Virus record (IMG/VR): IMGVR_UViG_3300025158_000017
Source of the DNA: an uncultured virus (IMG/VR IMGVR_UViG_3300025158_000017)
Lineage: Duplodnaviria; Heunggongvirae; Uroviricota; Caudoviricetes
DNA: 64,000 nucleotides
Direction: 5' to 3' (one strand)
A model generated the notes under the pieces. It was not told where the DNA came from, ran no database searches, and saw nothing but the letters and a program-made list of their open reading frames with translations. The position numbers and the translations under genes are program-made. Every line of letters begins with the position of its first letter. Within the stretch, counting starts at the first letter, position 1. This document shows, in pieces, positions 1,148 to 54,517 of the stretch.

Positions 1148-1254
1148 GCGGTCAAATCCTGATGAAGTCGCCGCACACTTTGGGGTCGGCTATTGTATGG
1201 TGGTCGGCGCAGGGCGGCGGTGTGCTTGCAGGCTGTTGCCGCCCTGCGCGCTAG

Positions 1255-2292
1255 TCAGAAACCTCCAGGCAGTGCCGCCGCGGGCTGCGGTGCGGGCTGT
1301 GGTGCCGGTTGAGGCGCGGGCGTTGGCGCAGCCGTTTCAATCGCGGGCGCATCATCCTTGAGGCAATCGGGGCGCTCGACCCAATCAATCACTTGCAGGA
1401 TCGGCTTGTTGCTGTTGCCGCTTTTCATGGTCTGAGATTCCACGCCGATCTGCTTGACCAGCGGCAGAAGCCGCCCGTTCTGCGATTTGGCGGGCCATTC
1501 GGCGCTGATCTGCTTTGCCAGCTTGGCAAAGGCATCATAGGCCCCGAAATTGCCTTGCTCCCACGTTGCCGCCTGCCCGCCACCGATGGCGCAGCGGATC
1601 GACAGTGCCTGCGACCACGCATATTTGCCGTTGGCCGTCTTGCTTTCGTCGGGGCGCGACGTGGCCTGGCTGAAAGTCGGGTTCCAGCGTTTTTCCGGGG
1701 CCTGCCCGGTTGCGCCGTCTTTCATCCATCCCAATTGCAGCGTGTCCAGATCGAGAACGCAGCCATTGGCAAAGGCGGGAATGACGTATTCGAACTTCTC
1801 GTCTTTTTCATCCTTGCCGCGCAATACCCACGATTTTGGGGCAAATCCCTTCTGCGCGGATCCGTTGCTGGTCCAATTCATCCACGGCCCTTTGCTGCCG
1901 CCTTCGTTTCCGGTGTCGATTTGAAAACTCATCGTCTTTTCCTTTTCTCTCGGTTCTGACAATTGCGCTATTGCCGGGATTGGCGCGGGCGCTCCCGCAT
2001 CGTGCAGACTGGCAGCGCCAGCTTGCAGAATGGCTTTATGATCTTCTTCGGCCTGTGCTATGGCGTCGTAGTATTCGGGATAATCGAGGCTGAGTGCGTC
2101 GAGGATCAGGCTTTCCTCGATCAGCGTGGCATTCACTTCCGCGATGGTTTCGCAGGCCTCGATTGCCGCGATGATCTGTCTGTGTTTGCGTTCTGCGCGC
2201 GTGGCAAAACCGCGAAACGTGACATCCCCATCGTATTCTTTTGGTGCAGGCGGAAATGGCAAGGCGCTGCCCGTGTCGATCGAGAATGTCAT
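1255..2292 (-). CDS. Putative ssDNA-binding/recombination protein with Pro-rich tail; possible internal start at 1932
   Basis: C-terminal APQPAPQP tail ending GGF; lies between resolvase and primase; RBS-like GAAAAGGA before MSFQIDTG. Confidence 0.5.
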   Translation of the reverse strand: MTFSIDTGSALPFPPAPKEYDGDVTFRGFATRAERKHRQIIAAIEACETIAEVNATLIEESLILDALSLDYPEYYDAIAQAEEDHKAILQAGAASLHDAGAPAPIPAIAQLSEPREKEKTMSFQIDTGNEGGSKGPWMNWTSNGSAQKGFAPKSWVLRGKDEKDEKFEYVIPAFANGCVLDLDTLQLGWMKDGATGQAPEKRWNPTFSQATSRPDESKTANGKYAWSQALSIRCAIGGGQAATWEQGNFGAYDAFAKLAKQISAEWPAKSQNGRLLPLVKQIGVESQTMKSGNSNKPILQVIDWVERPDCLKDDAPAIETAAPTPAPQPAPQPAPQPAAALPGGF

Positions 2293-2696
2293 GCCATTCC
2301 CTCCCTGATCAGGTAGGCAAATCCCTCAAGGCTGATGTCGATCAGGTGCACATCTTCGGCAGACCAGCGGCCCCGGCTGATGCACTCCATCGCGGCGCGG
2401 AGTTGAACGCGCACGCGGGCGTCCTGACGATCAAAGCGGTAAATCACGGCTGGGCGCTTGTCAGCGGCCAGAGCGGCCTTGACCGCCTGCGCCCACCATG
2501 CGGCCTGAAAGCCGCCGCCTGCGTAACGCTTTGCTTCAATGACAAAGGGAAAGGCCGGATCGTCGCAGATCAGGTCGCCCAAATCGGACTTGCGGTATTG
2601 GTCCAGATCGCGGCGGAACGTGATGCCGGTCAGCAAGAATAATTCCTTGCCAATTTCGCGCTCGAATGCGCTGCCCTTGTTGCGTGAATTAGTCAT
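2289..2696 (-). CDS. Holliday junction resolvase, PD-(D/E)XK family
   Basis: NSRNKGSAFERE, GDL, IEAKR motifs. Confidence 0.8.
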   Translation of the reverse strand: MTNSRNKGSAFEREIGKELFLLTGITFRRDLDQYRKSDLGDLICDDPAFPFVIEAKRYAGGGFQAAWWAQAVKAALAADKRPAVIYRFDRQDARVRVQLRAAMECISRGRWSAEDVHLIDISLEGFAYLIREGMA

Positions 2697-2705
2697 TCCG
2701 CCCCC

Positions 2706-3146
2706 TCAGAAAAGACCCCGACGCCTGGCGCGCCGGGGTGAGTTGACAGGAGACAGTAAACCCCGCTGCGGTCCCCGGCAGCGGACGGGATTCAGAAACA
2801 GCATCCCCACCGCCGCCAGCATGAGCCAGATGGAGGCGGGCAGTGGAACAGGTGTCGTGCTTGCCGGTGGCGGGGCAACAGCCTTGCCGTTCCCGCCGTC
2901 GCCGTCGAACAAAAGCAGAAGTGCTGCCACGAGAACAACGCCACCGATGATGGGCCACAGATCGCCCTGCACGGGCGCGGCCTCGATGATTGGCATTGGC
3001 GACCACTTGCCGCCGTGATAAATGCTGGCGTCGTAAATCGGCGGAAGCGTTGCAGCGTTCGCTGGTGCGGCGAGGCACAAGAGCGCCAGCGCGGCAAAGC
3101 GACCGGGCAGCGTGACATGTGTTGATGTGAGCGCGGTCAGTTTCAT
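2706..3146 (-). CDS. Small exported protein with VPLPA-CTERM sorting signal (start uncertain, frame open to 3350)
   Basis: Signal peptide ending APANA, then VPLPASIWLMLAAVGMLF and a basic tail. Confidence 0.7.
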   Translation of the reverse strand: MKLTALTSTHVTLPGRFAALALLCLAAPANAATLPPIYDASIYHGGKWSPMPIIEAAPVQGDLWPIIGGVVLVAALLLLFDGDGGNGKAVAPPPASTTPVPLPASIWLMLAAVGMLFLNPVRCRGPQRGLLSPVNSPRRARRRGLF

Positions 3147-3336
3147 CGCCAGATGTAGGGCGGCGGCAGTCGGCACTTTGCGTCCTTCACTGAACCGCAA
3201 AGCCGCGTTCGGGAGGTGTGACGCACGCCGCTTTATCAGTGCGGTGATGGGCATCATCCAGCTTTGCAACTGCATCACACCGCCGGAAAGCGGATGGACA
3301 GACCGGGCATAACGCCCGGCCAAATAGTTGATGAAA

Positions 3337-4128
3337 TCAGCCGACGACATAAACTGTCACATCCTCCGGCAGATCGGCCTTGAGAGCATCCACGCAGCGA
3401 TCAAATGCCTCGCGCAGAACGCGGTCACGGTCGTGCATGTCGATCTGAAAGCGCAGCTTGCCTTCCTCGATCCGAAAGCGAACCATGAACTTGATCCGCT
3501 GCGGGTCCATGCCGCGATAGACAGGGGCAAGAATGATGAAGTGATCCGGCAAGGTCACTGCGCCGCGCGTCTCATTTTCCTCAACATATTGGAATTGCCG
3601 CTGGCCATCGTACAGGCGTTGCGATGACTTAAACGAAACCTTTTTCGTCGCATCGAAAGTCATCACCATGTCCATTACGTCGGCTGCGTCGGGCTGCACG
3701 ACATCGACGGCACGCTCCTCCAGAAACATGCCGAATTCGACCTGCGACATGGCCCTACCGGAAACCTTGCGCCACGCCTTGAGAATATCGCTTTGCAAAG
3801 CCTCAAACCGCGCGTCGTGGGTTTTGTGCGACGGTTCGTCCGGCTCATCGCCGTCGATCTTAGCGATTATCTTCGCAGCCTCATAATTGGCAGTGATCAT
3901 TGTGGCGGTGGTCTGGAACCGCGCCAAGTATGCCGCCAAGGACGCGACATCGACAAAGCGATGGTCAGCTTTGATCCGGTCTGGCACCTTTTGGAACTGC
4001 TCCAAAGGTTCCATCCGGTAGCCGTCTGGCACCACGGCAAATTGCCCTGTCGCGGCGGGGTCAAACGAAACCGACGAAGCAAATTCGGCGCGACGAGCCG
4101 CTTCGTGTTCGGTAAGATCAGCCATCAA
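3337..4128 (-). CDS. DUF2303 family protein
   Basis: Length and motifs MSQVEFGMFLEE, FKSSQRLYDGQRQFQY, LPDHFIILAPVY. Confidence 0.8.
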   Translation of the reverse strand: MMADLTEHEAARRAEFASSVSFDPAATGQFAVVPDGYRMEPLEQFQKVPDRIKADHRFVDVASLAAYLARFQTTATMITANYEAAKIIAKIDGDEPDEPSHKTHDARFEALQSDILKAWRKVSGRAMSQVEFGMFLEERAVDVVQPDAADVMDMVMTFDATKKVSFKSSQRLYDGQRQFQYVEENETRGAVTLPDHFIILAPVYRGMDPQRIKFMVRFRIEEGKLRFQIDMHDRDRVLREAFDRCVDALKADLPEDVTVYVVG

Positions 4129-4438
4129 CGCGATCCCCCTTCATCAGCCCCAGATGCTCCATCGACGGGCTTTCACGAGTCAGGTCGCCGTTGCGACCCA
4201 TGAAAAAGAACGACTGCCCGAAGTCGATCTGCGGGGCCTTCGCGGAAACCTTGGCCGACGCTGCAAATCCCATCTCGCCGTTGGGAGCAATTTCCAGGGC
4301 GACAGTCACGGTGCCTTTTTTGCCTGTGCGCTGCACCGCGCCGATAACATCGCGCAGTTGCTGGTCTGCGGTCTCGACAGGCAAGCCGCCGTCGATCCGC
4401 CCGAGTGCCATTAGAAAATGGCTGTTTCCTTCGCTCAT
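4118..4438 (-). CDS. Conserved phage protein usually upstream of DUF2303
   Basis: AVQRTGKKGTVTVAL and FFMGRNGDLTRESP motifs; RBS AGAAGGA upstream. Confidence 0.7.
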   Translation of the reverse strand: MSEGNSHFLMALGRIDGGLPVETADQQLRDVIGAVQRTGKKGTVTVALEIAPNGEMGFAASAKVSAKAPQIDFGQSFFFMGRNGDLTRESPSMEHLGLMKGDRVDG

Positions 4439-4604
4439 TTCATGTATCCTTCTGTTGCAGGTGAATCCGAGCGCGCCGAATTGACGCCCGCCGCACTCGG
4501 GAAAGCGCCATTGCGCTTGCCAGAAAGCGGTTCTTGACCGGGCAGCGTGTTCCGCGCCGCCGCCCGGTCTGTCCCCAGCGCAGGGGAGGGCTGCGCAAGG
4601 GTGT

Positions 4605-5090
4605 TCATGTGGTGGCCCGATCTGACGATTTGAAACTGAACACGCTGCGCGGCAATGGCCTGCAAGCTGCGCGTTCCAATCCATCAAGCCATGATGCTGG
4701 CAACTTATCCCGCCACCGCGCGCGCAATACCGTTGCGACCGGAACGCCCAGAGCCTCGGCTACGCGCTCGTGGCCGATATCATCAAGTATTTTAGCAACC
4801 ACCGACAAACCTCTCGGAAAATATCCCTTATGTTTGTTAAACTTTGGCTTTTCTGTTCTGATTGCATTGGCTTCTGTTTTTAAAGCATCTGTCCGGTTGT
4901 CAAACCATTCATACTTTGTAGATGCGAGAAAATCAAAAAATTCAGACCCATAGTCATGTTCGAGGAGGCGACGATATGGATTTCCAGTGATACCAACGTA
5001 AAGAAGTTTTCCTCTTTCGTCATAATGACGATATACAGCAGTTTTGATTTTTTCCAGTTGAACAACGTTATTTTTTCCAAGCTGATTCAT
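4605..5090 (-). CDS. GIY-YIG nuclease domain fused to an HTH-like domain
   Basis: AVYRHYD..LLYVGIT..RRLLEH, E..AIRTEKPKFN; C-terminal VAEALGVPVATV. Confidence 0.7.
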   Translation of the reverse strand: MNQLGKNNVVQLEKIKTAVYRHYDERGKLLYVGITGNPYRRLLEHDYGSEFFDFLASTKYEWFDNRTDALKTEANAIRTEKPKFNKHKGYFPRGLSVVAKILDDIGHERVAEALGVPVATVLRARWRDKLPASWLDGLERAACRPLPRSVFSFKSSDRATT

Positions 5091-5271
5091 CGGAAATTTC
5101 CAATCCAGTTATCTGAGACAGCCGCGCGCGGAAAATACGACGCGGTATTGCGTGACCGTTTAACCACCTGGACAAATCAGATTGCCCAACTGGAACCTGC
5201 GAAGCCACCCAAGCCAGCTTGCGCCCTTCTTGCTCCGCCCATTTTCTGATTTGATCTCGTGCATTTTCCAT
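5068..5271 (-). CDS. Cro/XRE-like HTH regulator
   Basis: VASQVPVGQSDLSRWLNGHAIP; first gene after a leftward promoter. Confidence 0.7.
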   Translation of the reverse strand: MENARDQIRKWAEQEGRKLAWVASQVPVGQSDLSRWLNGHAIPRRIFRARLSQITGLEISDESAWKK

Positions 5272-5277
5272 ATAGCC

Positions 5278-5348
5278 AACCTAAACGCAAAATTTTTTGT
5301 TGTCAATCCGTCTTTTTTATTGCGTAACCGCAAGCGTTCCTGTAGTGT
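5278..5348. promoter_or_regulatory. Divergent sigma70-type promoters
   Basis: Leftward TTGACA-17-TAGGTT; rightward TTGCGT-17-TAGTGT. Confidence 0.65.
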
Positions 5349-5390
5349 CACTTCATCAACCGCGCATCTGCGCAGAGAGGGAGAGACGAA

Positions 5391-6179
5391 ATGAACAACC
5401 GCGTTAAAGCCTACAAGGCTTTCAATCAAGACATGACGTGTCGCGGATTTCAGTATGAAGTCGGCAAGACATACAAGCACGAGGGCGATGCAAGTCTTTG
5501 CAATACAGGCTTCCACGCCTACCTGCATCCGCTTGATGTCTTGAATTGCCACCCCGTCACATCGCGGTTCGCCGTTGTAGAACTGGACGGCGTTTCGCCT
5601 GAAACGGATGAGGACACAGAAGTTTGCGGTGCTGAAATCACAATTCAGGCCGAAGTGCAGATAAGCGATCTGGTGGATGCGGCTGTCAAACATGTGTTTG
5701 ACGCAGCGCAATGGATCAAAGGTAGTGCCGCAACAGGCGACAGAGGCGCGGCCCACGCAACAGGCCACAGAAGCGCGGCATCCGCAACAGGCATCAGCGG
5801 CGCGGCCTCCGCAACAGGCATCAGCGGCGCGGCCTTCGCAACAGGCCACAGTGGCGCGGCCTCCGCAACAGGCCGCAGTGGCGTGGCCTCCGCAACAGGC
5901 CACAGTGGCGCGGCCTTCGCAACAGGCAACGGCGGCGTGGCCTCCGCGACAGGCGACAACAGCGCGGCCTCCGCAACAGGCCACAGTGGCGCGGCAATGG
6001 CCAGCGGATATAAAGGTCGTGCAATGGGCGCGGAAGGCTGTGCCATTTTTCTCTGTGAACGCGACGATGCGACGGGGGAATTTCTGCACGTATGGGCGGG
6101 AATAGCTGGCCAAGACGGCATCAAGCCAATGACATGGTATTTTCTCAAAAATGGACACCCAATGGAGGTAGAAGAATGA
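5391..6179 (+). CDS. Phage protein with YKAF..CRGFQYEVGKTY domain and 11-aa ASATG repeats
   Basis: Widespread phage family pattern; strong RBS AGAGAGGGAG. Confidence 0.8.
   Translation: MNNRVKAYKAFNQDMTCRGFQYEVGKTYKHEGDASLCNTGFHAYLHPLDVLNCHPVTSRFAVVELDGVSPETDEDTEVCGAEITIQAEVQISDLVDAAVKHVFDAAQWIKGSAATGDRGAAHATGHRSAASATGISGAASATGISGAAFATGHSGAASATGRSGVASATGHSGAAFATGNGGVASATGDNSAASATGHSGAAMASGYKGRAMGAEGCAIFLCERDDATGEFLHVWAGIAGQDGIKPMTWYFLKNGHPMEVEE
5728..5996 (+). repeat. 33-bp coding tandem repeat, about 8 copies
   Basis: Recurrent CGCAACAGGC...GCGCGGCCT encoding ASATGxxGA. Confidence 0.85.
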
Positions 6180-6442
6180 ACATCCCCACCTACTACGTCA
6201 CCTTCGCGGAATATCACAACCGCATCGGCCACGCCTGCGATCCGACCGACTTCGACGGGGCCTGCGATGCCTATGCAGAGTGCCGCAGCGACGGGCAGGA
6301 CGCCTGCGTGATGCGGTATGACCCGCCGATCGGCAACAAATCCGGCATGATGATCGATGTCACCGAGGACGCAAACCGGCGCATTTCGATGCGCTATCGG
6401 CAGCGGTATCAGGACGCGCCAGAATGGCTGGTGGCGTCATGA
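6176..6442 (+). CDS. Hypothetical protein
   Basis: ATGA overlap, RBS GGAGG. Confidence 0.6.
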   Translation: MNIPTYYVTFAEYHNRIGHACDPTDFDGACDAYAECRSDGQDACVMRYDPPIGNKSGMMIDVTEDANRRISMRYRQRYQDAPEWLVAS

Positions 6443-6645
6443 CCTACCACGACGCAATGGCCGAATTGAACGAGGCGATCTATGCCGCCGTGCGCGCCGC
6501 AGACAACCATGACGGCGCGCCCGTCGAGGCGCTTAAACGGATCGCATCAGACATTGACTGCCTGATTGATCACAACTGCACCCGAGCTGAGTTCAAAGAC
6601 GCACACGCGCTCTACATGGGCGCGAAGCTGGCGGGGTTAGTGTGA
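6439..6645 (+). CDS. Hypothetical protein
   Basis: ATGA overlap chain. Confidence 0.55.
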   Translation: MTYHDAMAELNEAIYAAVRAADNHDGAPVEALKRIASDIDCLIDHNCTRAEFKDAHALYMGAKLAGLV

Positions 6646-6845
6646 TGAACCTGCCAGCCAACTACGATCAATGGCGTCTGCAAGGCCCCGACGAACCCGG
6701 TTGGGTTGGCGTCAAGGATGGCGACCTTTGCAACCGCTTCCCCGACGACGACATGCCGAGAGGCTATCGTCCGCGCCCTTGTCAGGGTGAAATGATTGAA
6801 CAGGCAGGCGAGATCGTCTGTGACGAATGTGGAGAACTGGCATGA
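6642..6845 (+). CDS. Small Cys-containing hypothetical protein
   Basis: CDEC motif; overlap chain. Confidence 0.6.
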   Translation: MMNLPANYDQWRLQGPDEPGWVGVKDGDLCNRFPDDDMPRGYRPRPCQGEMIEQAGEIVCDECGELA

Positions 6846-7204
6846 CTGAGATTGATTGGACCGCCCTTGAGGCGGATCGCGAAAACGGAACGCCGGGCCC
6901 TTGGCGCATCCGTAACTGCGACAGCATAGGCCATCGCTGCACTAACTACTATCAGGAAATATGGAACGAGGAGACTGACATACTTGTCACTACGGAGGTG
7001 ACGCGCGCCCACAATGACGGCGGAGCGGTAAATATGCGCCGCATCGCCCGCCTTCCCGAACTGGAAGCCTACGCCCTCGCCGCGCGCAAGAAGCTGAAGG
7101 CGGCGGAGAAGCTGGCAGAGGCTATCCAAAAAGAGAACTGGACAGAAGACGAAACGTGGGCGGCTCTAGACGCATGGGACGCAGCACAGGAGACAGGCCA
7201 ATGA
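6842..7204 (+). CDS. Ead/Ea22-like hypothetical protein
   Basis: TPGPW motif and N..RIARLPEL. Confidence 0.55.
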   Translation: MTEIDWTALEADRENGTPGPWRIRNCDSIGHRCTNYYQEIWNEETDILVTTEVTRAHNDGGAVNMRRIARLPELEAYALAARKKLKAAEKLAEAIQKENWTEDETWAALDAWDAAQETGQ

Positions 7205-7407
7205 CCGACCCAACCGAATATGCCCGAGACTTGAGGTTTTTCACCGAGATCCGCGACAGCGACGACGACAAGCAAAGCGGCAGGGGCGTCGCCACGGCCC
7301 CGGCGCTGGCTTTGGCTGTCCTGCTTGGCTTTGCTGCCGGATACGCCTTCGGCGATGTGCCGACAGAGGCGGCGGATCATGAGATTTGCACGGAAAGGGG
7401 ATGCTGA
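7201..7407 (+). CDS. Small membrane protein
   Basis: Hydrophobic ALALAVLLGFAAGYAFG; RBS AGGAG. Confidence 0.55.
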   Translation: MTDPTEYARDLRFFTEIRDSDDDKQSGRGVATAPALALAVLLGFAAGYAFGDVPTEAADHEICTERGC

Positions 7408-8009
7408 TGAACGCCTTCGGCATATCCACCAAGACACACCACGCCGCCGCCATAGATGGCCTGCGCATGGGGCTGGAGGTCCTGCCCGGTGCGGCGCTGC
7501 CAAACGCGCTCCTGTCGATCCTGCCGGATCTGCTTCCCGCCGCCGTCGCCCAATGGACCAAAGCAGCAGCGGAGACCCTGCCCGTTATGCGGCCAGAAAA
7601 TATTGAAGGAGACCACAGAATGACACAAGACATAAGCGACGAGGCTGTTGAGCGGTTCAGCGCGTCTGCCTCCTACACCGGGATCATGAAGCCATCGCGT
7701 GACGGGCTGTGGGTGCAATACCACGACTATGCCGCTCTCGTCGCACGGCTGAAAGAAGTGGAAGAGGAACGGGATGTGCAGAATGATCTGCGACAGATCG
7801 CAGAAGACGCGGCGGATGAATGGAGATCCCGCGCCGAGACCGCAGAGGCCAAGCTGGCAATAGCACGTTCATTTGACCTCGACGCCCTCCTAGCCGCAGC
7901 GGTGCGGGAGGGAGTCAAAATCGGAGCACATCCAGATTACCAAGTCATCGCCAACGAACCCGCCGCCATTGTCGCCGCTGTAGTGAGAGTGAAGGAAAAA
8001 CGCACATGA
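7404..8009 (+). CDS. Hypothetical protein (internal start likely at 7620)
   Basis: ORF track; internal RBS GAAGGAG before MTQDISDE. Confidence 0.5.
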   Translation: MMNAFGISTKTHHAAAIDGLRMGLEVLPGAALPNALLSILPDLLPAAVAQWTKAAAETLPVMRPENIEGDHRMTQDISDEAVERFSASASYTGIMKPSRDGLWVQYHDYAALVARLKEVEEERDVQNDLRQIAEDAADEWRSRAETAEAKLAIARSFDLDALLAAAVREGVKIGAHPDYQVIANEPAAIVAAVVRVKEKRT

Positions 8010-8052: not shown

Positions 8053-8427
8053 ATGAGTGACGCACCGGAACGGATTTGGTTGCAGCACGGCGATCCATAC
8101 AATGCGTTTGATGAAAACACGTGGTTCAGTGAGCCGGTTGGTGAAACAGAGGCCGAAACGGAATACCTCCGCGCCGATCTGATTGACGCCCTCCTGGCCG
8201 AAGCGGTGCGGGAGGGGATAGGGGTTGCGGCGAAAGCAGCGTTCAATGCATGTCGCGCATCGCAGTCGGGTTATAAAGACGAAAATTCACGGCTACTACA
8301 GCGGGCCGAGAGCGAAATGCTGCTTGAAACTCAGAAAGCGATCAGGACCGCCGACGAAACCGCCATTGCTGAGGCCGTGGAAAGAGTGAAAAGGACAAAA
8401 GATGAGCACAATTCAACCAATCTATGA
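8053..8427 (+). CDS. Hypothetical protein (MSDAPERIW family)
   Basis: RBS AGGAG; shares a ~33-bp block with the upstream ORF (7881 vs 8185). Confidence 0.6.
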   Translation: MSDAPERIWLQHGDPYNAFDENTWFSEPVGETEAETEYLRADLIDALLAEAVREGIGVAAKAAFNACRASQSGYKDENSRLLQRAESEMLLETQKAIRTADETAIAEAVERVKRTKDEHNSTNL

Positions 8428-16457: not shown

Positions 16458-17081
16458 ATGATGACTGACGAATACACACAAGACACATATGACAATAATA
16501 ACGTGAGGAGGAGACCAATTTCGCTCCTGGATAGAAGATCAAAACCAGTAGTCGTGGATTACCAGGATGAGGATGGAGAGTGGCGACGTCGGATAAAAAT
16601 GTCCCGGATAAAATTTGGGGATACAGAAAAAGCCATATTCTTGGAAGAATACCGGAAGTGGGGAAGAATGGGAGAGAGCGCCGCTAAGGTGGGAGTCTCG
16701 ACCCAATGTGTCCGAGCTCATATACACGAAGATGAAGAATTCGCCGAAGCTCTCCTGATTGCTGAGGAAGAGTATCGAGAGAAACTCATTGGGCATCAGC
16801 AAGATCTTGTCTTTAATGGGACGATAAAGAAGAGTTATGATAGAAATGGTAATCTCGTTTCTGAAGAGACAATTTATCCGATTCGTCTCATTGAACTAGA
16901 ATTGAAGAAGCATGATCCTGGATATAGAGAGCGCCAAGAAGTCTCTGTCAATCATTCTGGTGGTGTTCTAGTTGCTCCAGCAGAAATGTTGTCAATTGAT
17001 GATTGGGAAAAGAAATTCCAGAACATGAAAAATGTCACACCGGATCCTCTCTTGATAAATGTTGAGGATGAAGACGATTGA
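16458..17081 (+). CDS. terS: Terminase small subunit
   Basis: FLEEYRKWG..SAAKVGVS HTH, DEEFAEA, LELKKHDPGYRE, HSGGVLVAP. Confidence 0.75.
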   Translation: MMTDEYTQDTYDNNNVRRRPISLLDRRSKPVVVDYQDEDGEWRRRIKMSRIKFGDTEKAIFLEEYRKWGRMGESAAKVGVSTQCVRAHIHEDEEFAEALLIAEEEYREKLIGHQQDLVFNGTIKKSYDRNGNLVSEETIYPIRLIELELKKHDPGYRERQEVSVNHSGGVLVAPAEMLSIDDWEKKFQNMKNVTPDPLLINVEDEDD

Positions 17082-17276
17082 CCGAGTAGATCAATCCTAA
17101 AATCGGCCGAGTGAGTTTATCCGAGTCGTCATCCTCCTTTCGTCAGATGATTTATATTATCATCTTCATCTTCGAACCTCTGCTCTCACAGGATGAGATA
17201 AATAGAACTGTTCTTTGTGTGTGTTCCTGTGTTAGTGTGTAGGTAGGCAATGGTGCCTATCAACGAGGTAAACCAA

Positions 17277-17558
17277 ATGGAAATCAAGCTCTACTCACCA
17301 AAGGTCTGGTCTTATAATCACTTGGACCAGAATGGTCATGCTCTACCGGGTCATGGTCATTTCTGCCGAGAAGTCCCTTACTCTGTCTACCAAGATAGTG
17401 TGAAGAACAACAAGGTTGGAGATATCGTTCGCGCACATGCAAGCAGCCCCGGCATTGGCTTCGTTGATCATCGCATAACCAGGATTGATGAAACTGGTGT
17501 CTATGCTGTAGAGGTCAACAACACGATAAGAGAACTCACTAAGGAGGATGTCATATGA
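17277..17558 (+). CDS. Hypothetical protein
   Basis: RBS GAGGT behind a promoter cassette. Confidence 0.65.
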   Translation: MEIKLYSPKVWSYNHLDQNGHALPGHGHFCREVPYSVYQDSVKNNKVGDIVRAHASSPGIGFVDHRITRIDETGVYAVEVNNTIRELTKEDVI

Positions 17559-17672
17559 TGTCCAAAAGAATTGTTGCCAGCCTTCAATCGGCAACATTTA
17601 AGTAAAAATCGGCCGAGTCAGTTCTTCTGACTCGGTCTTCTCTTGAGTCATCTTCTTCTTCGAATATCTTTC

Positions 17673-17730
17673 AGATAAATGAGGATGAAGATAAAGAAGA
17701 GATAAATGAGGATGAAGATAAAGAAGAGAT
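17673..17730 (+). repeat. 27-bp purine-rich tandem repeat, 2 copies
   Basis: AGATAAATGAGGATGAAGATAAAGAAG x2. Confidence 0.9.
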
Positions 17731-17802
17731 GGGTTGTTCTCCCCGCGTCACATTCTACTGTGTAGGTGGGTAATAATGCCTGCACAAAGAAAGGTAAAAC
17801 CG

Positions 17803-17967
17803 ATGGACAATCAATCACATGGCCCGTTTCGTAAAACCCACATTTACACGCTTAACCTGCCCAAGAAGTTCTTGCGTGAAACTCTTGCCCAAATGACAGA
17901 AGAGTATCTGGCTCTTGGTGGCAAGATCACTGTCGGTCGCACAGTATGGGCGCGGGGGGCACGGTGA
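17803..17967 (+). CDS. Small hypothetical protein
   Basis: RBS AAAGGT; EYLALGGKITV motif. Confidence 0.6.
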   Translation: MDNQSHGPFRKTHIYTLNLPKKFLRETLAQMTEEYLALGGKITVGRTVWARGAR

Positions 17968-18123
17968 TGGTGTGGGGGTCAACAGCGTCCATGTGGTGAT
18001 GTTACTCTCCACGCATCTGGTCCTCGGCCTCGGTGCAAAGGTGACACTTTGCGATTCACACTCTATAATGGTGATGAAGAAGTTCGTTCTGTTTAGTTTC
18101 AAGCAGTAATCAACGATTGAAAT

Positions 18124-18154
18124 GAGTGAGGGCTTCGGTCCTCACTCTTTCTTT
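18124..18154 (+). terminator. Rho-independent terminator
   Basis: GAGTGAGGGC-TTCG-GTCCTCACTC followed by TTTCTTT. Confidence 0.8.
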
Positions 18155-18418
18155 GGGCGACTATCATCTTCTTCTTTTCAAAAATTGACGAGTGATTGAT
18201 TGACCGAGTCGGTCAATCCGATCGTCTCTTCAACCGTCAAAATCATTATCTTCTTCTTCTTTCCTCGCCTCATTTTGCTGCACCGCAGCATCCACACATG
18301 CCGCAGCGCAGCAATAAAAATTTTAAATTCTTTTAGTTTGGCCTTAATTTTGCCACATTTGCCTGCCATATATGTAATTGCCAATAACGGCGCAACACAA
18401 GCAAAAGGCACTAACACA

Positions 18419-18817
18419 ATGGCAAACGCAAACACTAAAACCGCAGCACCTGCAACCAAAGCTAAGGCACCTGTAGCACCTACCGCAGCGCCCGCAGCAC
18501 CTACCGCAGCGCCCGCAGCACCTACCGCACCAACTTATATAATGGGGGGCTGGCCTGCAAAAGCGCAAGGCGGTGGTAGTGTGCGCGCATACTGTTATCA
18601 AGTAGCACAAGGCTTGCTTAAGGCAAATCCGGCAGGCTTTACAAAAGCGCAATATGCTAGTGCGCTTGCCGCAAACGCCGCTGGCAGCACATGCAAGCAA
18701 CCAAGCACAGGCTGGGGCACTAGTGCTAAGCCCAACGGTGCAGCACATGCCCACGCCAATTGGTTTGCGCACACCAAGCAAGGCTGGCTTGTCCCTGCCC
18801 CTAACAGCAAGGCTTAA
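18419..18817 (+). CDS. Ala/Lys/Pro-rich 132-aa protein with no Asp or Glu, in GA-free island
   Basis: RBS AAAAGG before ATG 18419; PTAAPAA repeats; no GA dinucleotide in gene. Confidence 0.7.
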   Translation: MANANTKTAAPATKAKAPVAPTAAPAAPTAAPAAPTAPTYIMGGWPAKAQGGGSVRAYCYQVAQGLLKANPAGFTKAQYASALAANAAGSTCKQPSTGWGTSAKPNGAAHAHANWFAHTKQGWLVPAPNSKA

Positions 18818-18872
18818 GCCTGCCCTGCCCCTGCCACTAGGGCAGGGGCAACACTTAACCTAAAGGTGCAAA

Positions 18873-18974
18873 ATGTTACATATTCTCTATCCACTGGCGG
18901 GCGTTGCGTTTGTTGCATACGTGCTATGCAATACTTATGCCGGTCTGCTTGCCACGCTGGCAACCCTGCCCTAG
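18873..18974 (+). CDS. 33-aa hydrophobic peptide in GA-free island
   Basis: Manual translation MLHILYPLAGVAFVAYVLCNTYAGLLATLATLP; RBS AAAGGT. Confidence 0.55.
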   Translation: MLHILYPLAGVAFVAYVLCNTYAGLLATLATLP

Positions 18975-19098
18975 CACTACCCCGCCCCTAGCATGGCTGT
19001 AGGCCGCTAGGGGCTGTAGGCCGCTCTCCCTCCACCCCACTTGTCAATCAACCCGACACTTTCTGCATTCCAAAAATAAAAAACGGAGATGGACTCAT

Positions 19099-19398
19099 AT
19101 GGCTTTTCTCATATACAATGAAAACGAAATTCGCACAGGAGCTATGCCCGATTTTTCAAAGTTAGACTCCAATAGACAATTTCGAAGACATTTAGAAAAT
19201 TGGTTCTTTTTAAAATTGACCTTGCGTAATGGTAATATGATTGATAGACATCAAGCCAGTAAGGAAATGGTTATTTGTGACCGGAAATTAGAGTTCTGGG
19301 AGAAAAAACCATCATTTGATCAGAAACAAGCAGAAATCGATATCGCCGAACTTCGCGATTTATGGGAGTTGGAGTATGACAGAAAATCTGGATCATGA
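19099..19398 (+). CDS. Hypothetical protein
   Basis: RBS-like GGAG/TGGA; ORF track. Confidence 0.65.
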   Translation: MAFLIYNENEIRTGAMPDFSKLDSNRQFRRHLENWFFLKLTLRNGNMIDRHQASKEMVICDRKLEFWEKKPSFDQKQAEIDIAELRDLWELEYDRKSGS

Positions 19399-19540
19399 AG
19401 CAATCTTAGCAGAATATTATAAGAAACAAGGTAAGAAGAAAGTTCATTTTTGCCCAGAATGGGACTTTATGGCAATCCACGAAGAATCACCGGAATTTCA
19501 GGCTTGTTTATGCTATTCAGACGAGCTACCTTTGACATAG
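19376..19540 (+). CDS. Small protein with HFCPEWD motif
   Basis: HFCPEWDFM..E.SPEF.AC.C pattern. Confidence 0.6.
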   Translation: MTENLDHEAILAEYYKKQGKKKVHFCPEWDFMAIHEESPEFQACLCYSDELPLT

Positions 19541-19562
19541 TCAAATCACATGGCGCGCACGA

Positions 19563-19835
19563 GTGCTATTTATTGGGATTATGATCGTGTCCGAAGTTAC
19601 AGAATTTCCTGTATTGAAGATTCTTACTGCTGACGAAGCCATTGCTGTATCACAGAGGTTAGGAGCGAAGAGAGGGGTGATCATGTATGATTGCCCTTGT
19701 GGCTGTGGTAAGATTGATACGATTTATATAGGGGAGCCCAATGTTAGGGATTTGCTCTTCTATGCTAAAAATTTAGAGAACTACGCAATGGTAGAATATT
19801 GTGAAGATATAGAGCAGAGTAATGAAATTTCCTGA
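19563..19835 (+). CDS. Hypothetical protein with CPCGCG motif
   Basis: ORF track; overlaps terL start. Confidence 0.5.
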   Translation: MLFIGIMIVSEVTEFPVLKILTADEAIAVSQRLGAKRGVIMYDCPCGCGKIDTIYIGEPNVRDLLFYAKNLENYAMVEYCEDIEQSNEIS

Positions 19836-21330
19836 TAATGTTGTCTGGAGACCCATGAAGGGGAGCCAAGAGGCTTTTCTTTCGACAACTCCGATATTTG
19901 AAGTTTTGTTTGAAGGGACTCGCGGAGGCGGGAAAACAGATTGTCTGCTTATGTCATTCGGTATGCATATTGGAAAAGGATTTGGACCAGCTTGGAAAGG
20001 AATTCTGTTCAGGCAGACTTACAAGCAGCTTGGTGATGTGATTTCGAAAACACAGAAATGGTTTCCTCAAATTTGGCCGAAAGCGAAGTTCAATCAATCT
20101 GATTCGAGTTGGACTTGGCCTGATGGTGAAAAGCTTCTTCTTCGTCAGTTTATGAAGAGTGATGACTACTGGAACTATCACGGACACGAATACCCATGGA
20201 TCGGATGGGAAGAGCTCTGTAACTGGCCGACTGATGAGGGTTACAAACGCATGATGTCATGCTGTCGAAGCTCACAAAAGGGTATGCCTCGTATGGTTCG
20301 CTCAACGACTAACCCATATGGACCTGGACACAATTGGGTGAAACATCGCTTCAAACCTGGAGTGATGAATATGATTGTTCGGAAAGACTTGGTCGATGAA
20401 AATGGCATGAAAGAGCCACCGAGACTAAGTATTCATAGTCATATTGACGAAAATATTGCTCTTTTGGAAGCTGACCCTGATTATAAGCAGAAAATCGCTG
20501 CAAGTGCTCGTAATGCGGCTGAAAGAGCAGCTTGGCTTGAAGGTTCTTGGGACATCGTCTCCGGAGGCATGTTTGACGATGTGTGGGACCCGAAATGGAA
20601 TGTGGTTCCAGTGTTTGAAATCCCTGAAAATTGGCGAATTATTCGTTCTTTTGACTGGGGCGCGTCAAAACCTTTCTCTGTTGGGTGGTGGGCCATTTCT
20701 GATGGATCAGATGTGCAATGGCCTGATGGAACTTGGCGATCTACAGTTCGTGGAGACGTTTTTCGTGTGCGGGAGTGGTATGGATGCACTGGAAAGCCCA
20801 ATGAAGGACTAGATCTGCTCGCATCAGAGATCGCAGAAGGTATAGTTAAGAGAGAATTAGAGTGGGGTTGGCGTCGCCAAGCTGAAAACTGGTGCAGAGT
20901 AAAGCCTGGAGTAGCAGATTCGCAAATTTTTGCTGCTGAAAATGGAAATTGCATTGCTACAGACATGAAAGTCAAGGTTCGACTAGATGATGGCTTCAAA
21001 TATCCAGGAATTAGATGGAATCCAGCAGACAAACGTCCTGGAAGTCGTGCTACAGGCTGGACACAAATGCGTCAGAAGCTGAAAAATGCTTGGCCGAACG
21101 TGAAAAAAGTAAATGAAGAGAAAAGATTGTATCCTCGTGAGAGACCTGGACTCTTCATCTTCGAGCATTGTAAATGGTTTATAGAGACAGTTCCTGTATT
21201 ACCTCGTGATGATAAAGACATGGACGATATAAATACAGACGCAGAAGATCACATCGCAGACGAAACTCGTTATCTCGTTCGCTTTATTCAGCATCCTAGC
21301 TCTTCTGGATCAGTAATCGGGAACTATTAG
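19822..21330 (+). CDS. terL: Terminase large subunit
   Basis: GTRGGGKT Walker A, WEEL Walker B, TTNPYGPGH, FDWG and EDHIADETRY nuclease motifs. Confidence 0.95.
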   Translation: MKFPDNVVWRPMKGSQEAFLSTTPIFEVLFEGTRGGGKTDCLLMSFGMHIGKGFGPAWKGILFRQTYKQLGDVISKTQKWFPQIWPKAKFNQSDSSWTWPDGEKLLLRQFMKSDDYWNYHGHEYPWIGWEELCNWPTDEGYKRMMSCCRSSQKGMPRMVRSTTNPYGPGHNWVKHRFKPGVMNMIVRKDLVDENGMKEPPRLSIHSHIDENIALLEADPDYKQKIAASARNAAERAAWLEGSWDIVSGGMFDDVWDPKWNVVPVFEIPENWRIIRSFDWGASKPFSVGWWAISDGSDVQWPDGTWRSTVRGDVFRVREWYGCTGKPNEGLDLLASEIAEGIVKRELEWGWRRQAENWCRVKPGVADSQIFAAENGNCIATDMKVKVRLDDGFKYPGIRWNPADKRPGSRATGWTQMRQKLKNAWPNVKKVNEEKRLYPRERPGLFIFEHCKWFIETVPVLPRDDKDMDDINTDAEDHIADETRYLVRFIQHPSSSGSVIGNY

Positions 21331-24082: not shown

Positions 24083-25141
24083 ATGGCAGCAGGTCCTACG
24101 ACTCGGGTGAGCGACATCATCGTCCCCGAAGTATTCACCCCTTATATGCAAGTTCTCACTGAAGAGAAGTCTCGACTGGTTCAATCTGGTCTGCTTTCTC
24201 GTTCAGAAGCTCTTGACAATCTTCTCTCTGGTGGCGGTATCACTTTCAATGTCCCGTCGTTCCGAGATCTTGACAATGATGCTGATCGCATTTCGACTGA
24301 CACTTCTGTGCCTTTCGCAGATGCTGATGCATCTCTTCCGACTGGTGTGGCTCGTCCGCCCAATCCGCTGAAAATCCAAACTCAGCGTGAAATCGCTGTG
24401 CGCTTGAATCGTAACAACTCCTGGTCCACTACTGACCTCGCTGCGATTCTTGCTGGTGCTGACCCGATGCAAGCAATTGCGAATCGCGTCGCTGCATACT
24501 GGACTCGTCGTCTTCAAGCTGCATTCATTGCAACTTGGAATGGCGTTATCGCTGATAACTCTGCAAACGATTTTGGTGATTACATCAATGATATCTCCGG
24601 TGGTGGTTTTGTTGATGGTGTGACCAACTTTTCTGCAGAGGCATTTCTTGATGCTGCTCAGACGATGGGTGATTCGCAAGAAGATCTGGTCGCCTGTGCT
24701 GTTCACTCGGTTGTTTATAACCGTATGCAGAAAAACAACCTGATTGATTTTATTCCTGATGCTCGTGGCGAAATCAATATTCCCACTTTCCTTGGGCGTG
24801 AAGTCATTGTTGACGATGGTCTTCCTCGGACTGGCTCTGTCTACGATACTTGGCTCTTCGGCGCTGGTGCAACTCAGATGGGTGTTGGCACTCCTCCGGT
24901 TGCAACTGAAGTTGAGCGCAAAGCTGGTGGTGGGAATGGTGGTGGTCAAGACGTGCTCTACTCGCGCGTCATGTGGACTCTGCATCCTGCTGGTCACGCT
25001 TGGGTTGGAACTGCTGGTGATGGTGGTCCTGCAAACACTGGAACGGGATCTTCGGATCTTGATGAAGCAGCTTCGTGGAACCGTGTATATCCCGAACGCA
25101 AGCAAATCAAGTTCGCTCGTCTCGTAAGCCGTGAAGCATAA
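24083..25141 (+). CDS. Major capsid protein
   Basis: TRVSDIIVPEVF, ADPMQAIANRVAAYW, GREVIVDDG; strong RBS and downstream terminator. Confidence 0.92.
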   Translation: MAAGPTTRVSDIIVPEVFTPYMQVLTEEKSRLVQSGLLSRSEALDNLLSGGGITFNVPSFRDLDNDADRISTDTSVPFADADASLPTGVARPPNPLKIQTQREIAVRLNRNNSWSTTDLAAILAGADPMQAIANRVAAYWTRRLQAAFIATWNGVIADNSANDFGDYINDISGGGFVDGVTNFSAEAFLDAAQTMGDSQEDLVACAVHSVVYNRMQKNNLIDFIPDARGEINIPTFLGREVIVDDGLPRTGSVYDTWLFGAGATQMGVGTPPVATEVERKAGGGNGGGQDVLYSRVMWTLHPAGHAWVGTAGDGGPANTGTGSSDLDEAASWNRVYPERKQIKFARLVSREA

Positions 25142-31294: not shown

Positions 31295-34200
31295 TGGTAA
31301 CTGAAACAGTTAATGTTCGTTTTGTAGAAACTGGTGCCAGAGTTATCAAAAGACGCATTGATGAAATCGGTGTGGCTGCTGACAAGACTACTCGTGGTAT
31401 CTTTCTTCTAAAGCGAGCTTTATTCGTAATTGGTGGTGCTGGCATTGCCAGAGGATTAGCATCGTATGCTGATTCTCTAACTAATGTTGAAAACCGTCTT
31501 AGATTGACTACTGATAGCACAGCCCAATTGGAAGCAGTCCAATCTAAACTCTTTCAGGTTGCCAGAAATTCTCGTTCTGATTTTGCAGGAACTGCTGACG
31601 TATATAATCGAATTGCTCTTTCTGCTAAAAATCTTGGCGTCGGTCAACAAGAAATTCTAAATGTTACTGAGACCTTGAATAAGGCAGCAATTCTCTCTGG
31701 TGCATCAGCTCGAGAAGCTAACGCTGCTCTTGTTCAGCTTGGGCAAGGTATTGCATCTGATCGCTTGTCTGGTGATGAACTTCGTTCTGTTTTAGAACAA
31801 CTTCCAGCAGTTGCTGATATTCTTGTTGATTACTTGAATGATGTTGGGACATTTGGTGAAGTTACGAGAGGCACACTAAGGAAACTTGGTAAAGAAGGAA
31901 AACTCACTGCTGAAATCGTTGTCAATGCTGTTTCTGCAGCTAAGGGAAATATTGACGAGTTGTTCAGTCAGACAGACATCACAATTGACCAAGCATTTAA
32001 TAATCTAGAAACTGGTTTTCTAGAATTACTTGATTCTTTTGAAGATGCATTTAAATTGAGCAATAAATTTGCAATTTTGATAGATACTCTTTCTAAGAAT
32101 CTCGATGTTTTAGCTTTTGGAGTTGTATCTGTAGGAGTTGCTCTCGGAGCATTTGTGACTGCGAAAGCTCTTGATGTTATTTCAACATTTGTAACAAAAT
32201 TGAAAATTGCTGGAGGAGCATTAGCTAGACTTAGATCTATTCAATCAACAGTCGCTGCTTCTTCTGTTGCTTCTTCTGCTGCTCTAGCTGCTGATACAAG
32301 ATCTAGAGTTGCAAATCTAACTGCTATAAATGTAAGATCAGCAGCTCAAGTTAATTCTGCTAGACTTGAATATGCTGAAGCAACTGCTGCATTTCAAAAT
32401 GGTCGTGCAAGAGATTTACTAACTGGTAGATTTGTTGCAAACGCTGCTGCTCGTGATAGATTAACGGCTGCAAGTGTTCGTCTTGCAAATGCAGAACGAG
32501 TTAATCTTGCTTTGTCTAGGAGTCTAACTGGAGCAAGAACTGCTAGCATAGCGGCTGACAATGTTGCTGCTGGTGCTGCTACACGCGCAGGTGCAGCACA
32601 AGCGGCAAGGGCAGGGGTATTGGCGCGGCTAAGTGCCACCTTCCCCCTACTAGCTGGTGCTGCTAGGCTGGCCGCTGCGGCAGTCTCAGCCCTATTCCTT
32701 GTTTTGGCAGCAAATCCGTATACTGCTCTGATAACTGTTATCGCACTGGCAACTATTGCTCTATTCACTTTTGGTAATAGAATTAAAGTAACTGAAGATG
32801 GCGTGGTCGGTTTGAAAGATGCAGCTATCGCTGCTTTTCAACTTATAACAGAAGCGATTGTTCCAGTCACTAATTTTCTTTCTGAAAGTTTTAGAACAGC
32901 AATTGAAAATATCAAAGCTGCTTTTGGAATAGAATTTCCATCTATCTTTGAATTAGTTAAATCTGTTATCTTTGGGATTATAGACACAATAACATTTTTA
33001 CCAAGAGTCGTCATTGGTGTTTTGGCTGGAATCAACGCTGCGTGGGATTCTTTGCCTGGAGCAGTAGGAACAGCAATTGATACTGTGGTTGATATCTTCG
33101 TAAGTGGATTTGAGAATCTTGTTAACATAGCTTTTCGTGGTCTTAATAAGATTATCAGAGGATTCAATTCACTAGCAGGAACAAGAGTTGGTGATGCTCT
33201 TGGTCTTAAAAAATTAAATGAACAAACGGGTATTCAACTAGATAATCTAAGAACTAATTTCGGTAAAGGAGCCAAAGGAGCAGGAGAAGCTTTCACTGAA
33301 GGTTTTACCAATGCTTTTGAAGCTGGGAAAATAGAGAATGTTCTAGACAATTTTGGTAATCGTATTATTGAAAGAGCAAGAAAAAATATTGCTGAGGCTG
33401 AATTGAATAAAGGTTCAGTCACCACTGGTGATCCAGAATCTACAACTCCTACTGATGGTGGAGGCAATAAAACTGATTTTGCAAGTGAACTTGCTGAACT
33501 TCAACAAAAGATTGATTTAGAAAAACAATTCGGAATTCAAAAAGAAATCACGAATAATATTCTCAGTATTGAGAAAACAATTAAACGTGAATTAACTGCT
33601 GTTGAAAGAGATCAAGTTGCAAATGCAACTCGTTTACTTGAAATTAGTAAAATTCAAGGAGAAGTCCTACAGAGCATTCTTGGGCCACAAGAAACTCTTA
33701 GATTTACTCAATCAGCACTGAATGAACTTTTTGCCCAAGGAGCTATAACTCTAGAGCAATATAACACAAAACTTCGAGAGACACAAATTGCTGCTGATCG
33801 TGCTGCTGGAACTCTAAGTGGTGGATTCAAAGCTGCTATTGCATCAAGTATTCAATCAGCGAGTCAGTTTGGTTCTACTCTAGGAGATTTCGTTGTAGGT
33901 CAAGCAAATGCTGCCGCTGATGCAATTGTTGAATTTGCTAAAACTGGCCAATTCAACATAAGACAATTTTTCCAAGATCTGTTTGCGCAGCTTTTGAAAC
34001 TAGCTGCTCAAAGATTGTTGCTGAGTCTTCTTGGTGGACTTTTTGGAGCTCCAGGTGCTGGTCTCAGTGGTCTAAGTCAAGGTGGGTCCATCTTGCCAAG
34101 TTTTGCTGGTGGTGGTAGCATGATGCCAAATGGTCCAGGTTCTACCGATACTCAACTCGTTGCATTTAATAAGAGACCTGATGAAAGAGTTGATGTATTG

Positions 34201-52539: not shown

Positions 52540-52648
52540 TTATTTCTGATTTTTGATAAATAACACTTGTGGTCAGAAGTTCGATACAGTAATGTTCTAA
52601 TACTGGCCACAAGTAGTGAGCCACTATATCTCAGAAATGGAGTCACAG

Positions 52649-54460: not shown

Positions 54461-54517
54461 TTGTCTTTTTAATTGTCCTAGCTTTATGCTTACTTAATAC
54501 ATAACCGGGAGATTTCC

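Follow-up and report, generated by a model that had tools for sequence, protein, structure and literature searches.

A cassette purged of GA and TC dinucleotides between terS and terL of an uncultured siphovirus with thymidine-hypermodification genes

Results

The island between terS and terL

The stretch analyzed here (hereafter the window; 64,000 nt from the uncultured virus IMGVR_UViG_3300025158_000017 of IMG/VR, Duplodnaviria; Heunggongvirae; Uroviricota; Caudoviricetes) contains, from about 8 kb onward, a siphovirus-type genome with a G+C content (GC) of ~40%, which includes terS (16458–17081, phrog_4044), terL (19822–21330) and portal, capsid, tail, tape-measure and lysis genes. Between terS and terL lies an apparently self-contained unit, which we call the island, with two small genes and hardly any copy of the dinucleotide GA, or of its complement TC, on either strand. 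The features of the island and its left edge are:

18124–18147, + strand: terminator-like hairpin GAGTGAGGGCTTCGGTCCTCACTC followed by TTTCTTT, which ends the upstream unit just ahead of the island
18160–18271, no strand assigned: left boundary module, dense in GA and TC, with 13 TC in 18222–18271
18198–18218: perfect 10+10 palindrome GATTGACCGA/TCGGTCAATC within the left boundary module, followed by a TC-rich tract on the + strand
18221–19054, + strand: GA-free run
18272–19024, no strand assigned: core island, with 0 GA and 9 TC on the + strand, so that the TC/GA step is nearly gone from both strands
18350–18378, + strand: candidate promoter TTGCCA-17 nt-TGTAAT, read by eye
18379–18392, + strand: weak leader hairpin of 4 pairs; relatives have stems of 4–8 pairs and other sequence in the same place
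18404–18408, + strand: ribosome-binding site AAAGG of the first gene
18419–18817, + strand: gene for a basic protein of 132 amino acids (aa) without Asp or Glu
18826–18850, + strand: GC-rich 10+10 hairpin that follows the stop codon and has no U tract
18862–18866, + strand: ribosome-binding site AAAGG of the second gene
18873–18974, + strand: gene for a hydrophobic peptide of 33 aa (MLHILYPLAGVAFVAYVLCNTYAGLLATLATLP), with 0 GA and 4 TC
18980–19025, + strand: end region with hairpin-forming GCCCCTAGC / GCTAGGGGC
18995–19008 and 19012–19025, + strand: two direct 14-nt copies of GGCTGTAGGCCGCT in the end region

As read from the sequence, the edges of the island would fit a transcription unit, with a terminator upstream and conserved leader and post-stop hairpins, its own hairpins lacking U tracts. 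The post-stop hairpin is present in all 25 distinct homologous loci and the leader hairpin recurs with differing stem sequences; likewise, comparable switches from GA-rich to TC-rich sequence sit ahead of the island in relatives. The sequence TTGCCACA is found at the position of the candidate promoter in six relatives, and the candidate has TTGCCA where the consensus -35 hexamer, TTGACA, would itself contain GA.

Purge of GA and TC from the island

Consecutive GA dinucleotides on the + strand lie at 18220 and 19055, leaving a gap of 835 bp, when the runner-up in the window is 178. The first-pass annotation of this DNA had described a + strand without GA from 18222 to 19054, with about nine TC in 18272–19024, where roughly 45–50 of each dinucleotide would be expected. 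Our counts agree and lie well outside what chance would give: there are exactly nine TC in the core (at 18291, 18329, 18598, 18628, 18792, 18884, 18886, 18890, and 18944), and in 18222–19054 we found 0 GA and 27 TC vs. 45.7 and 56.2, respectively, expected from the island's own base composition, with 13 of the 27 TC sitting within the TC-rich tract 18222–18271. The remainder of the phage is rich in both dinucleotides (~55–105 GA and ~46–98 TC per kb), and counts over the genome and in relatives, which the annotation had proposed, showed that the island is unique in the window and that the purge recurs in relatives. The longest segments free of both GA and TC in 8001–64000 outside the island are 85 and 56 nt.

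When the 132-aa protein is recoded synonymously by the codon usage of the phage, 7.2 GA and 17.5 TC are predicted in its gene, vs. 0 (P = 0.0004) and 3 (none of 5,000 simulations as low) observed. The purge therefore exceeds what amino-acid composition would cause, and among 61 phage genes this one is the extreme outlier (z of -3.7 for GA and -5.1 for TC). The non-coding segments 18272–18418, 18818–18872, and 18975–19054 also contain no GA, for 7.4, 3.6, and 2.8 expected. Since non-coding parts and synonymous sites are both purged, selection acts at the level of DNA and not of protein. Composition differs as well, with a GC of 0.54 in the core island vs. ~0.40 in the phage. No graded avoidance of sense-strand GA was seen in highly expressed genes, and capsid and tail genes are enriched in TC (z of +6.3 and +5.1).

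The GA-free run reaches beyond the TC-poor core because its flanks, 18222–18271 and 19025–19054, are TC-rich pyrimidine tracts on the + strand; for the same reason, the apparent asymmetry between the strands is partly compositional. Within the 132-aa gene this asymmetry is not significant: were GA relaxed to the same extent as TC, about 1.2 copies would be left, and by our own estimate none would be found with a probability of ~0.3.

The stretch is contained in 24 sequencing runs, from aquifer and spring metagenomes, with no RNA run among them. Assemblies from four metagenome runs, a small sample, differ by two substitutions (18367 C>T and 18921 G>A), neither of which makes a GA or a TC.

The two island proteins

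The ORF for the 132-aa protein has six Ser codons, all of them AGY (three AGT and three AGC), lacks GGA, CGA, and AGA, and ends in TAA; that for the 33-aa peptide, with its 0 GA and 4 TC, ends in TAG. The AGY serine codons, the stops, the lack of Asp and Glu, the AAAGG ahead of both starts and a second peptide obeying the same rule had been pointed out from the letters alone, and all are borne out.

The 132-aa protein consists of a disordered tail rich in Ala, Pro, Thr, and Lys (residues 1–38) and a folded domain (residues 40–126), which an AlphaFold model renders as a small helix/strand domain (pLDDT 75 overall and ~87 for residues 40–126). The best match of this model with VIA-align (Z 5.9, rmsd 3.4, 77 residues aligned) is below the reliable level of the tool; the matches include many winged-helix domains, among them those from JetA, MukF, ORC, H1/H5, and cullin WHB, which is a weak pointer to a winged-helix-like, nucleic-acid-binding fold. 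Foldseek returned no match for the model in the PDB, Pfam and PHROGs have no family for either island protein, and a feature search of the ESM Atlas retrieved only unnamed viral clusters at 0.83–0.86, below the trusted level. A large protein collection contains 68 homologues of the 132-aa protein, and 35 representative clusters were found as well, none of them functionally named (one is a "hypothetical protein"); a cluster look-up of four homologues bearing Asp or Glu returned no names either. No match was obtained among cultured phages by tblastn with the 132-aa protein or by a nucleotide search with window positions 17000–21000, and so no cultured relative is known. A paralogue of ordinary composition was sought in the window and none was found.

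The peptide is less widespread: a script scored a hydrophobic peptide in 9 of 25 homologous loci and inspection by eye gave about ten alike, and 33-aa-like peptides are kept only within the sub-family of the window phage. Separately, the PTAAPAA units of the protein tail are encoded by a 21-nt tandem repeat (18467–18529), at which assembly units break. One unit seems to be missing from P0002, a 125-aa variant in the database, and the number of units thus varies in nature.

Conservation in related phages

We surveyed 80 IMG/VR loci with a related TerL (50–100% identity) and found the 132-aa gene in 30 of them, always upstream of terL and on the same strand, at a distance of 322–5,043 nt; it is present in 23 of the 39 loci with at least 3 kb of sequence upstream of TerL. 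Three of the loci (L001–L003) represent the window phage itself, and there are a few further duplicates among the 30. In the matched part of the gene, both GA and TC are entirely missing from 10 of the 30 loci, and 18 of the 30 contain at most two GA and three TC. Islands of 424–1,100 bp with 0–3 GA and 0–3 TC occur in 18 loci of distinct records, and examples of word-free runs come from four loci (GA-free and TC-free, respectively: 811 and 648 in L009, 793 and 721 in L013, 1,060 and 785 in L048, and 1,023 and 622 in L054). By synonymous recoding, 21 of these genes contain in total 41 GA vs. 260 expected and 89 TC vs. 331 expected. Horizontal transfer or composition as the cause was ruled out, because the purge survives deep divergence of the protein (37–83% identity). 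Long runs free of TA, TT, or AA were also seen in relatives, and were set aside as explained by low A/T content or modest expectations.

The protein cost is likewise shared. Asp and Glu are absent from 47 of the 68 homologues, and overall amount to 0.4% and 0.2% of residues vs. 12.3% for both together in the other genes of the phage. The other 21 homologues have acidic residues, up to seven of them, in columns where the rest have Gln, Thr, Asn, or Ala; the protein thus tolerates acidic residues, and their loss is therefore the price of the DNA rule.

In one sub-clade the sense strand is still purged of GA and TC has returned: with observed and expected values from recoding, L051 has 2/11.2 GA vs. 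16/18.2 TC, L047 has 2/14.1 vs. 11/18.8 and L042 has 0/15.2 vs. 8/15.6. This pattern is what a process reading the template strand, and constraining it more strongly, could leave. The template-strand bias claimed in the first-pass annotation consequently finds support in L051 and L042, but not in the window, where the asymmetry of the gene falls short of significance, or in the ten relatives that purge both strands fully.

Two other kinds of sequence lack both dinucleotides. The tape-measure gene of the window contains a GA/TC-free stretch of 85 nt (32558–32642; GA-free over 32557–32730) in an Ala-rich segment, and the homologous segment (AAQ..ARLTALFPTLAG) is GA/TC-free over 117 nt in G008, 124 in G007, 112 in G009, 96 in G010, and 74 in G002; it may be a by-product of Ala and Gly codons or a second protected site. 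In addition, several relatives carry GA/TC-free elements of ~117 nt with GGACGT-containing words at both ends, which are absent from the window. They occur in two copies each in G004 (31530–31646 and 46202–46317) and G005 (24238–24354 and 38301–38438), and also in G006, G011, G007, and G003 (loci L116–L150).

Thymidine-hypermodification genes

The window phage was claimed from its letters to encode a thymidine-hypermodification pathway, and family searches support this assignment, identifying the following genes together with a set of supporting nucleotide-metabolism genes:

53365–54273, + strand: 5-hydroxymethyldeoxyuridine (5-hmdU) DNA kinase, 5-HMUDK (PF18723, E 2e-32, 113 bits, cut-off 25)
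54518–55801, + strand: GT1-type glycosyltransferase, near the 5-hmdU DNA kinase gene
55798–56826, + strand: thymidylate-synthase homologue (PF00303, E 9e-21; phrog_5131, E 2e-122), also near the kinase gene

The module also encodes HD-type deoxynucleotidase-like (YfbR-like), DUF3310/nucleotide-kinase-like and dCTP-deaminase/dUTPase-like proteins, and 5-HMUDK was found in all eight related records with a completeness of at least 85%. Matches to the thymidylate-synthase family do not by themselves separate hydroxymethylase from methylase activity; the kinase would set the sequence context of hypermodification. Within 52616–55801, the kinase gene is flanked by those for a family-less protein of 250 aa and for the glycosyltransferase, and no family match to a known pyrophosphorylase-type transferase (aGPT-Pplase type) was found. 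The final thymine adduct may be sugar-bearing or otherwise undescribed.

The replication module contains SNF2 and SF1 helicases, proteins like gp32–34 of Pam3, a ribonucleotide reductase and a family A DNA polymerase. Positions 1–8000 of the window differ from the remainder in GC (55–61% vs. ~40%) and hold two GTAC sites; ORFs 7386–8009 and 8053–8427 cross the change without a gap, and this region is probably a mosaic early arm of the one phage genome and not a second phage.

Palindrome avoidance and the GA/TC step

Restriction sites with a TC would be under no pressure to disappear if the T of that step is masked. We therefore compared the observed to expected (O/E) ratios of 6-mer palindromes with and without a GA/TC step, with expectations from a maximal-order Markov model, pooling the window phage with five complete relatives. 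Palindromes without the step are depleted in this pool (1,833 observed vs. 3,104 expected, O/E 0.59), some of them being nearly missing (GCATGC, 0 for 62 expected; GCCGGC, 0 for 28; GGTACC, 0 for 27; GGCGCC, 1 for 61), whereas all 16 palindromes with the step have an O/E of at least 0.73. The difference persists between sites of matched GC, with O/E values of 0.73 for GGATCC vs. 0.00 for GGTACC and 0.02 for GGCGCC, and of 1.66 for GAGCTC vs. 0.35 for CAGCTG. Genome by genome, O/E is 0.83–0.99 for palindromes with GA/TC vs. 0.40–0.76 for those without, and the relief is significant in 11 of 11 genomes (one-sided Mann-Whitney, p ≤ 0.024, and ≤ 0.001 in ten). In the same 11 genomes, the control steps AG/CT, GT/AC, CA/TG, and GG/CC give no relief, and AA/TT gives a weak, secondary one in some (p from 0.005 to 0.93). 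Together, these genome-wide patterns point to TC as the protected, and putatively modified, context. Palindromes without GA/TC have an O/E of 0.45 inside islands vs. 0.60 in their flanks.

The tetramer GTAC is a case apart. It is missing from 8001–64000, where ~80 copies are expected, and the only two in the whole window (904 and 3610) compare with ~98 expected; it is absent from the relative G005 too. It seems that one restriction site, which has no TC step, is avoided altogether.

Sequences next to the island

A near-consensus promoter (GTGACA-17-TATAAT, 11 of 12 positions) lies in 18041–18155, with the terminator hairpin 18124–18147 about 55 nt downstream. The pair could give rise to a small RNA of ~80 nt or to an attenuated leader, in either case overlapping the last part of ORF 17915–18109. 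Three modules dense in GA and TC occur between terS and the island (17060–17190, 17600–17735, and 18160–18272). They carry inverted GATGAAGA / TCTTCATC-type repeats and the motif CCGAGTC, four of whose seven copies in the window are in 17121–18210; these modules may serve as pac-site boxes, as terminators whose tails are rich in TC, or as spacers that are meant to be heavily modified.

An assembly unit of 804 bp (17701–18504) has a depth 1.5–1.8 times that of both neighbours in four of four metagenome runs (30.7 vs. 20.2/16.7; 70.9 vs. 44.8/46.2; 71.5 vs. 43.5/48.5; and 13.8 vs. 9.3/7.6). The excess may stem, indistinguishably, from a bias by GC, from strains in common or from less-modified DNA being sequenced better.

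Discussion

The purge, its conservation, its cost in protein sequence, the pathway genes and the palindrome signature linked to TC are observations; from them we infer that modification takes place at TC, that the island is left unmodified and that transcription is the benefit. There is good, if indirect, support for the island being free of the modification context. On balance, we think it probable that the cassette is kept out of reach of the thymine hypermodification made by the phage itself, and that what this buys is transcription by the host polymerase on a modified genome. The phage would substitute 5-hmdU for T and then hypermodify it after replication via the 5-hmdU DNA kinase pathway, at T followed by C, as the genome-wide palindrome pattern indicates. 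Because TC is missing from both strands, the cassette could not be hypermodified and would stay as ordinary DNA (with T or 5-hydroxymethyluracil, 5-hmU) in every copy, including fully modified virion DNA. As the most likely benefit, host RNA polymerase could then initiate on, and read through, the cassette whatever its modification state, which would matter most on the incoming genome.

Some published work counts in favor of this proposal. Thymidine hypermodification is described as sequence-specific (PMC8989533) and bulky groups in the major groove block bacterial RNA polymerases in vitro, probably at initiation (PMC4838386). In another in vitro study, transcription from a 5hmU template was 350% of that from natural DNA, and 37% after phosphorylation by 5-HMUDK (PMC6457204).

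Several observations weigh against this proposal. The modification context put forward in the first-pass annotation is favored indirectly by the palindromes that escape depletion when they contain the step; nevertheless, the tetramer TCGA is depleted despite its TC (O/E 0.62–0.85 in six genomes, vs. 0.94–1.05 for GATC). A scan with the promoter consensus found no promoter inside the island, where the only candidate is the one read by eye. Moreover, GA and TC are not depleted in the intergenic DNA of the phage overall (409 observed vs. 399 expected), nor in its early genes or in the major capsid gene (71 GA vs. 77.7 expected), and Pfam and PHROG scans of the annotated ORFs of the window recognized no RNA polymerase gene. 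A search of five relatives for a T7-like RNA polymerase (PF00940) had no matches, but was uninformative, as the control matched nowhere either. Because other promoters, early genes and capsid genes have normal GA and TC and no phage polymerase was recognized, the host polymerase must read modified, TC-rich DNA anyway. This runs counter to the simple model, advanced with the original description, of a bulky base at TC blocking the host enzyme. For T7 RNA polymerase, the natural thymine hypermodifications are reported to have only moderately positive or negative effects (PMC11550810).

The distribution of the cassette also speaks against a strict requirement. Neither the gene nor any island is present in 16 of the 39 loci with sufficient upstream sequence. 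In the relatives G006 and G011, a clear palindrome signature (p < 0.001) goes together with a relaxed gene (9 and 7 GA, 17 and 15 TC, and 3 Asp/Glu), and the gene in L093, a 5-kb contig, has 20 GA and 6 Asp/Glu. Homologues with normal GA and acidic residues in modifying relatives, which the annotation had set against its own proposal, are thus found in part, in G006 and G011. No link was seen between the strictness of the island and the presence of 5-HMUDK or the palindrome signature. Given the relaxed copies in G006 and G011 and the loci that lack the gene, the cassette is advantageous, not indispensable, to TC-protected phages.

A more specific version, which we regard as doubtful, makes the cassette a pioneer gene, the only part of the virion genome that host RNA polymerase uses at once and whose product opens the rest to transcription. 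The acid-free protein, if of a linker-histone-like, winged-helix kind, would in that case bind modified DNA or the polymerase.

The location of the island leaves some room, albeit not much, for the explanation that it is kept free of bulky bases because a protein must recognize it or act on it, the candidates being terminase at a pac site, a replication origin or a host factor, and that the genes merely happen to occupy the site. It lies between terS and terL, close to three GA/TC-dense modules with CCGAGTC repeats, and has direct repeats at its right end. However, the purge falls on a putative transcription unit, at a cost in Asp and Glu to its proteins, the distance to terL varies by thousands of nucleotides among loci, and it is the protein that is conserved while the DNA of the island is poorly so; furthermore, a purge of GA from the sense strand alone, as in one sub-clade, is unexpected for a double-stranded binding site.

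It is rather improbable that the island escapes a nuclease or defence system reading TC/GA or the modified base, such as a type IV-like restriction enzyme or a glycosylase. The cassette would then survive, and could still be expressed, during an attack on the rest of the genome, and a countermeasure might be what it encodes. A duplex-acting enzyme would require both strands to be purged, as they are in most relatives, and palindromes without GA/TC are depleted inside islands at least as much as in their flanks, so that defence pressure does bear on island DNA. Yet one intact piece of 0.8 kb gains little if the genome is cut elsewhere, and this explanation shares every observation with transcription of an unmodified cassette while adding an unseen player; no enzyme against hypermodified thymine turned up, and none was searched for.

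Avoidance at the level of RNA has some precedent, as RegB of phage T4 cuts at GGAG. If a phage or host endoribonuclease cut at GA, a GA-free mRNA would be long-lived, and indeed the sense strand of the island is GA-free throughout, both of its ribosome-binding sites are AAAGG and not GGAG, and L051, L047, and L042 avoid only sense-strand GA. This is nonetheless very unlikely, for it cannot explain the complete loss of sense-strand TC in 10 loci or the genome-wide TC/GA palindrome signature, which is a property of DNA. Lastly, sequence data cannot tell which strand's base is marked, and phage CAjan, with preQ0 at GA and GGC (PMC7544227), counts in favor of a modified G or A in 5'-GA-3' (e.g., a 7-deazaguanine) in place of T in 5'-TC-3', but this is scarcely credible, as TGT/DpdA (PF01702) is missing from five of five complete relatives, in a search whose control matched 14 of 14 genomes, and from the scanned ORFs of the window, the 5-HMUDK pathway is in all complete genomes tested, and GGC is abundant in the island.

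The closest known systems to that of the window phage are those of Pseudomonas phage M6, Salmonella phage ViI, Delftia phage PhiW-14 and Acinetobacter phage SH-Ab 15599, with which it shares a 5-hmdU DNA kinase and a thymidylate-synthase homologue. Thymine in these phages is partially modified, in a dinucleotide context, and the modification protects the DNA from restriction enzymes; TG or TC is present in the sites that resist restriction in M6, ViI, and PhiW-14 (PMC6449724), and modification in SH-Ab 15599 is mainly at TG (PMC13458397). In the window phage, by contrast, the apparent context is TC only, with no relief for TG/CA palindromes, and the kinase adjoins a GT1 glycosyltransferase, with no recognized pyrophosphorylase or transferase. 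The passages of those papers that we consulted describe no gene kept free of the modification context, and our literature search returned no report of a region without modification, or without a motif, in the genome of a hypermodified phage. A further parallel is the phage T-dioxygenase 5mYOX97, which prefers NTC, with NTT second (PMC13229309): T followed by C is marked after replication, and AA/TT palindromes show a weak secondary relief in some of the 11 genomes compared here. However, 5mYOX97 oxidises T in place, whereas the window phage would incorporate 5-hmdU and then use the kinase. Neither a 5mYOX enzyme nor ParB was seen in the window phage, although no search was aimed at either.

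Restriction-site avoidance in phages also selects out short words, as the window phage itself does with GTAC over 56 kb. The purge differs in that it concerns a two-letter step, is confined to one unit of 0.75 kb and excludes two amino acids; what it evades is most likely an enzyme of the phage itself, as opposed to a nuclease of the host.

Transcription control coupled to modification is known from Alc of T4, which acts on cytosine DNA, and from TF1 of SPO1, which acts on hydroxymethyluracil DNA. There, too, the state of the modified base decides transcription by the host polymerase and a small DNA-binding protein can take part; these proteins discriminate whole genomes, whereas in the window phage a hole in the modification, encoded in cis, would exempt a single gene.

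If our interpretation is correct, phages with bulky thymine adducts also recode genes so as to leave deliberate holes in their modification, to the point of forgoing two amino acids. The context of an unrecognized DNA modification would then be readable from the genome alone, through purged islands and the palindrome signature, in uncultured viruses included, and the cassette and the remaining genome would be a natural test object for bacterial RNA polymerase on modified templates. Should the product also open the rest of the genome, this hole in the viral epigenetic coat would be the ignition switch of infection. More generally, the cassette would then suggest that hypermodification has a cost in gene expression, around which phages must engineer.

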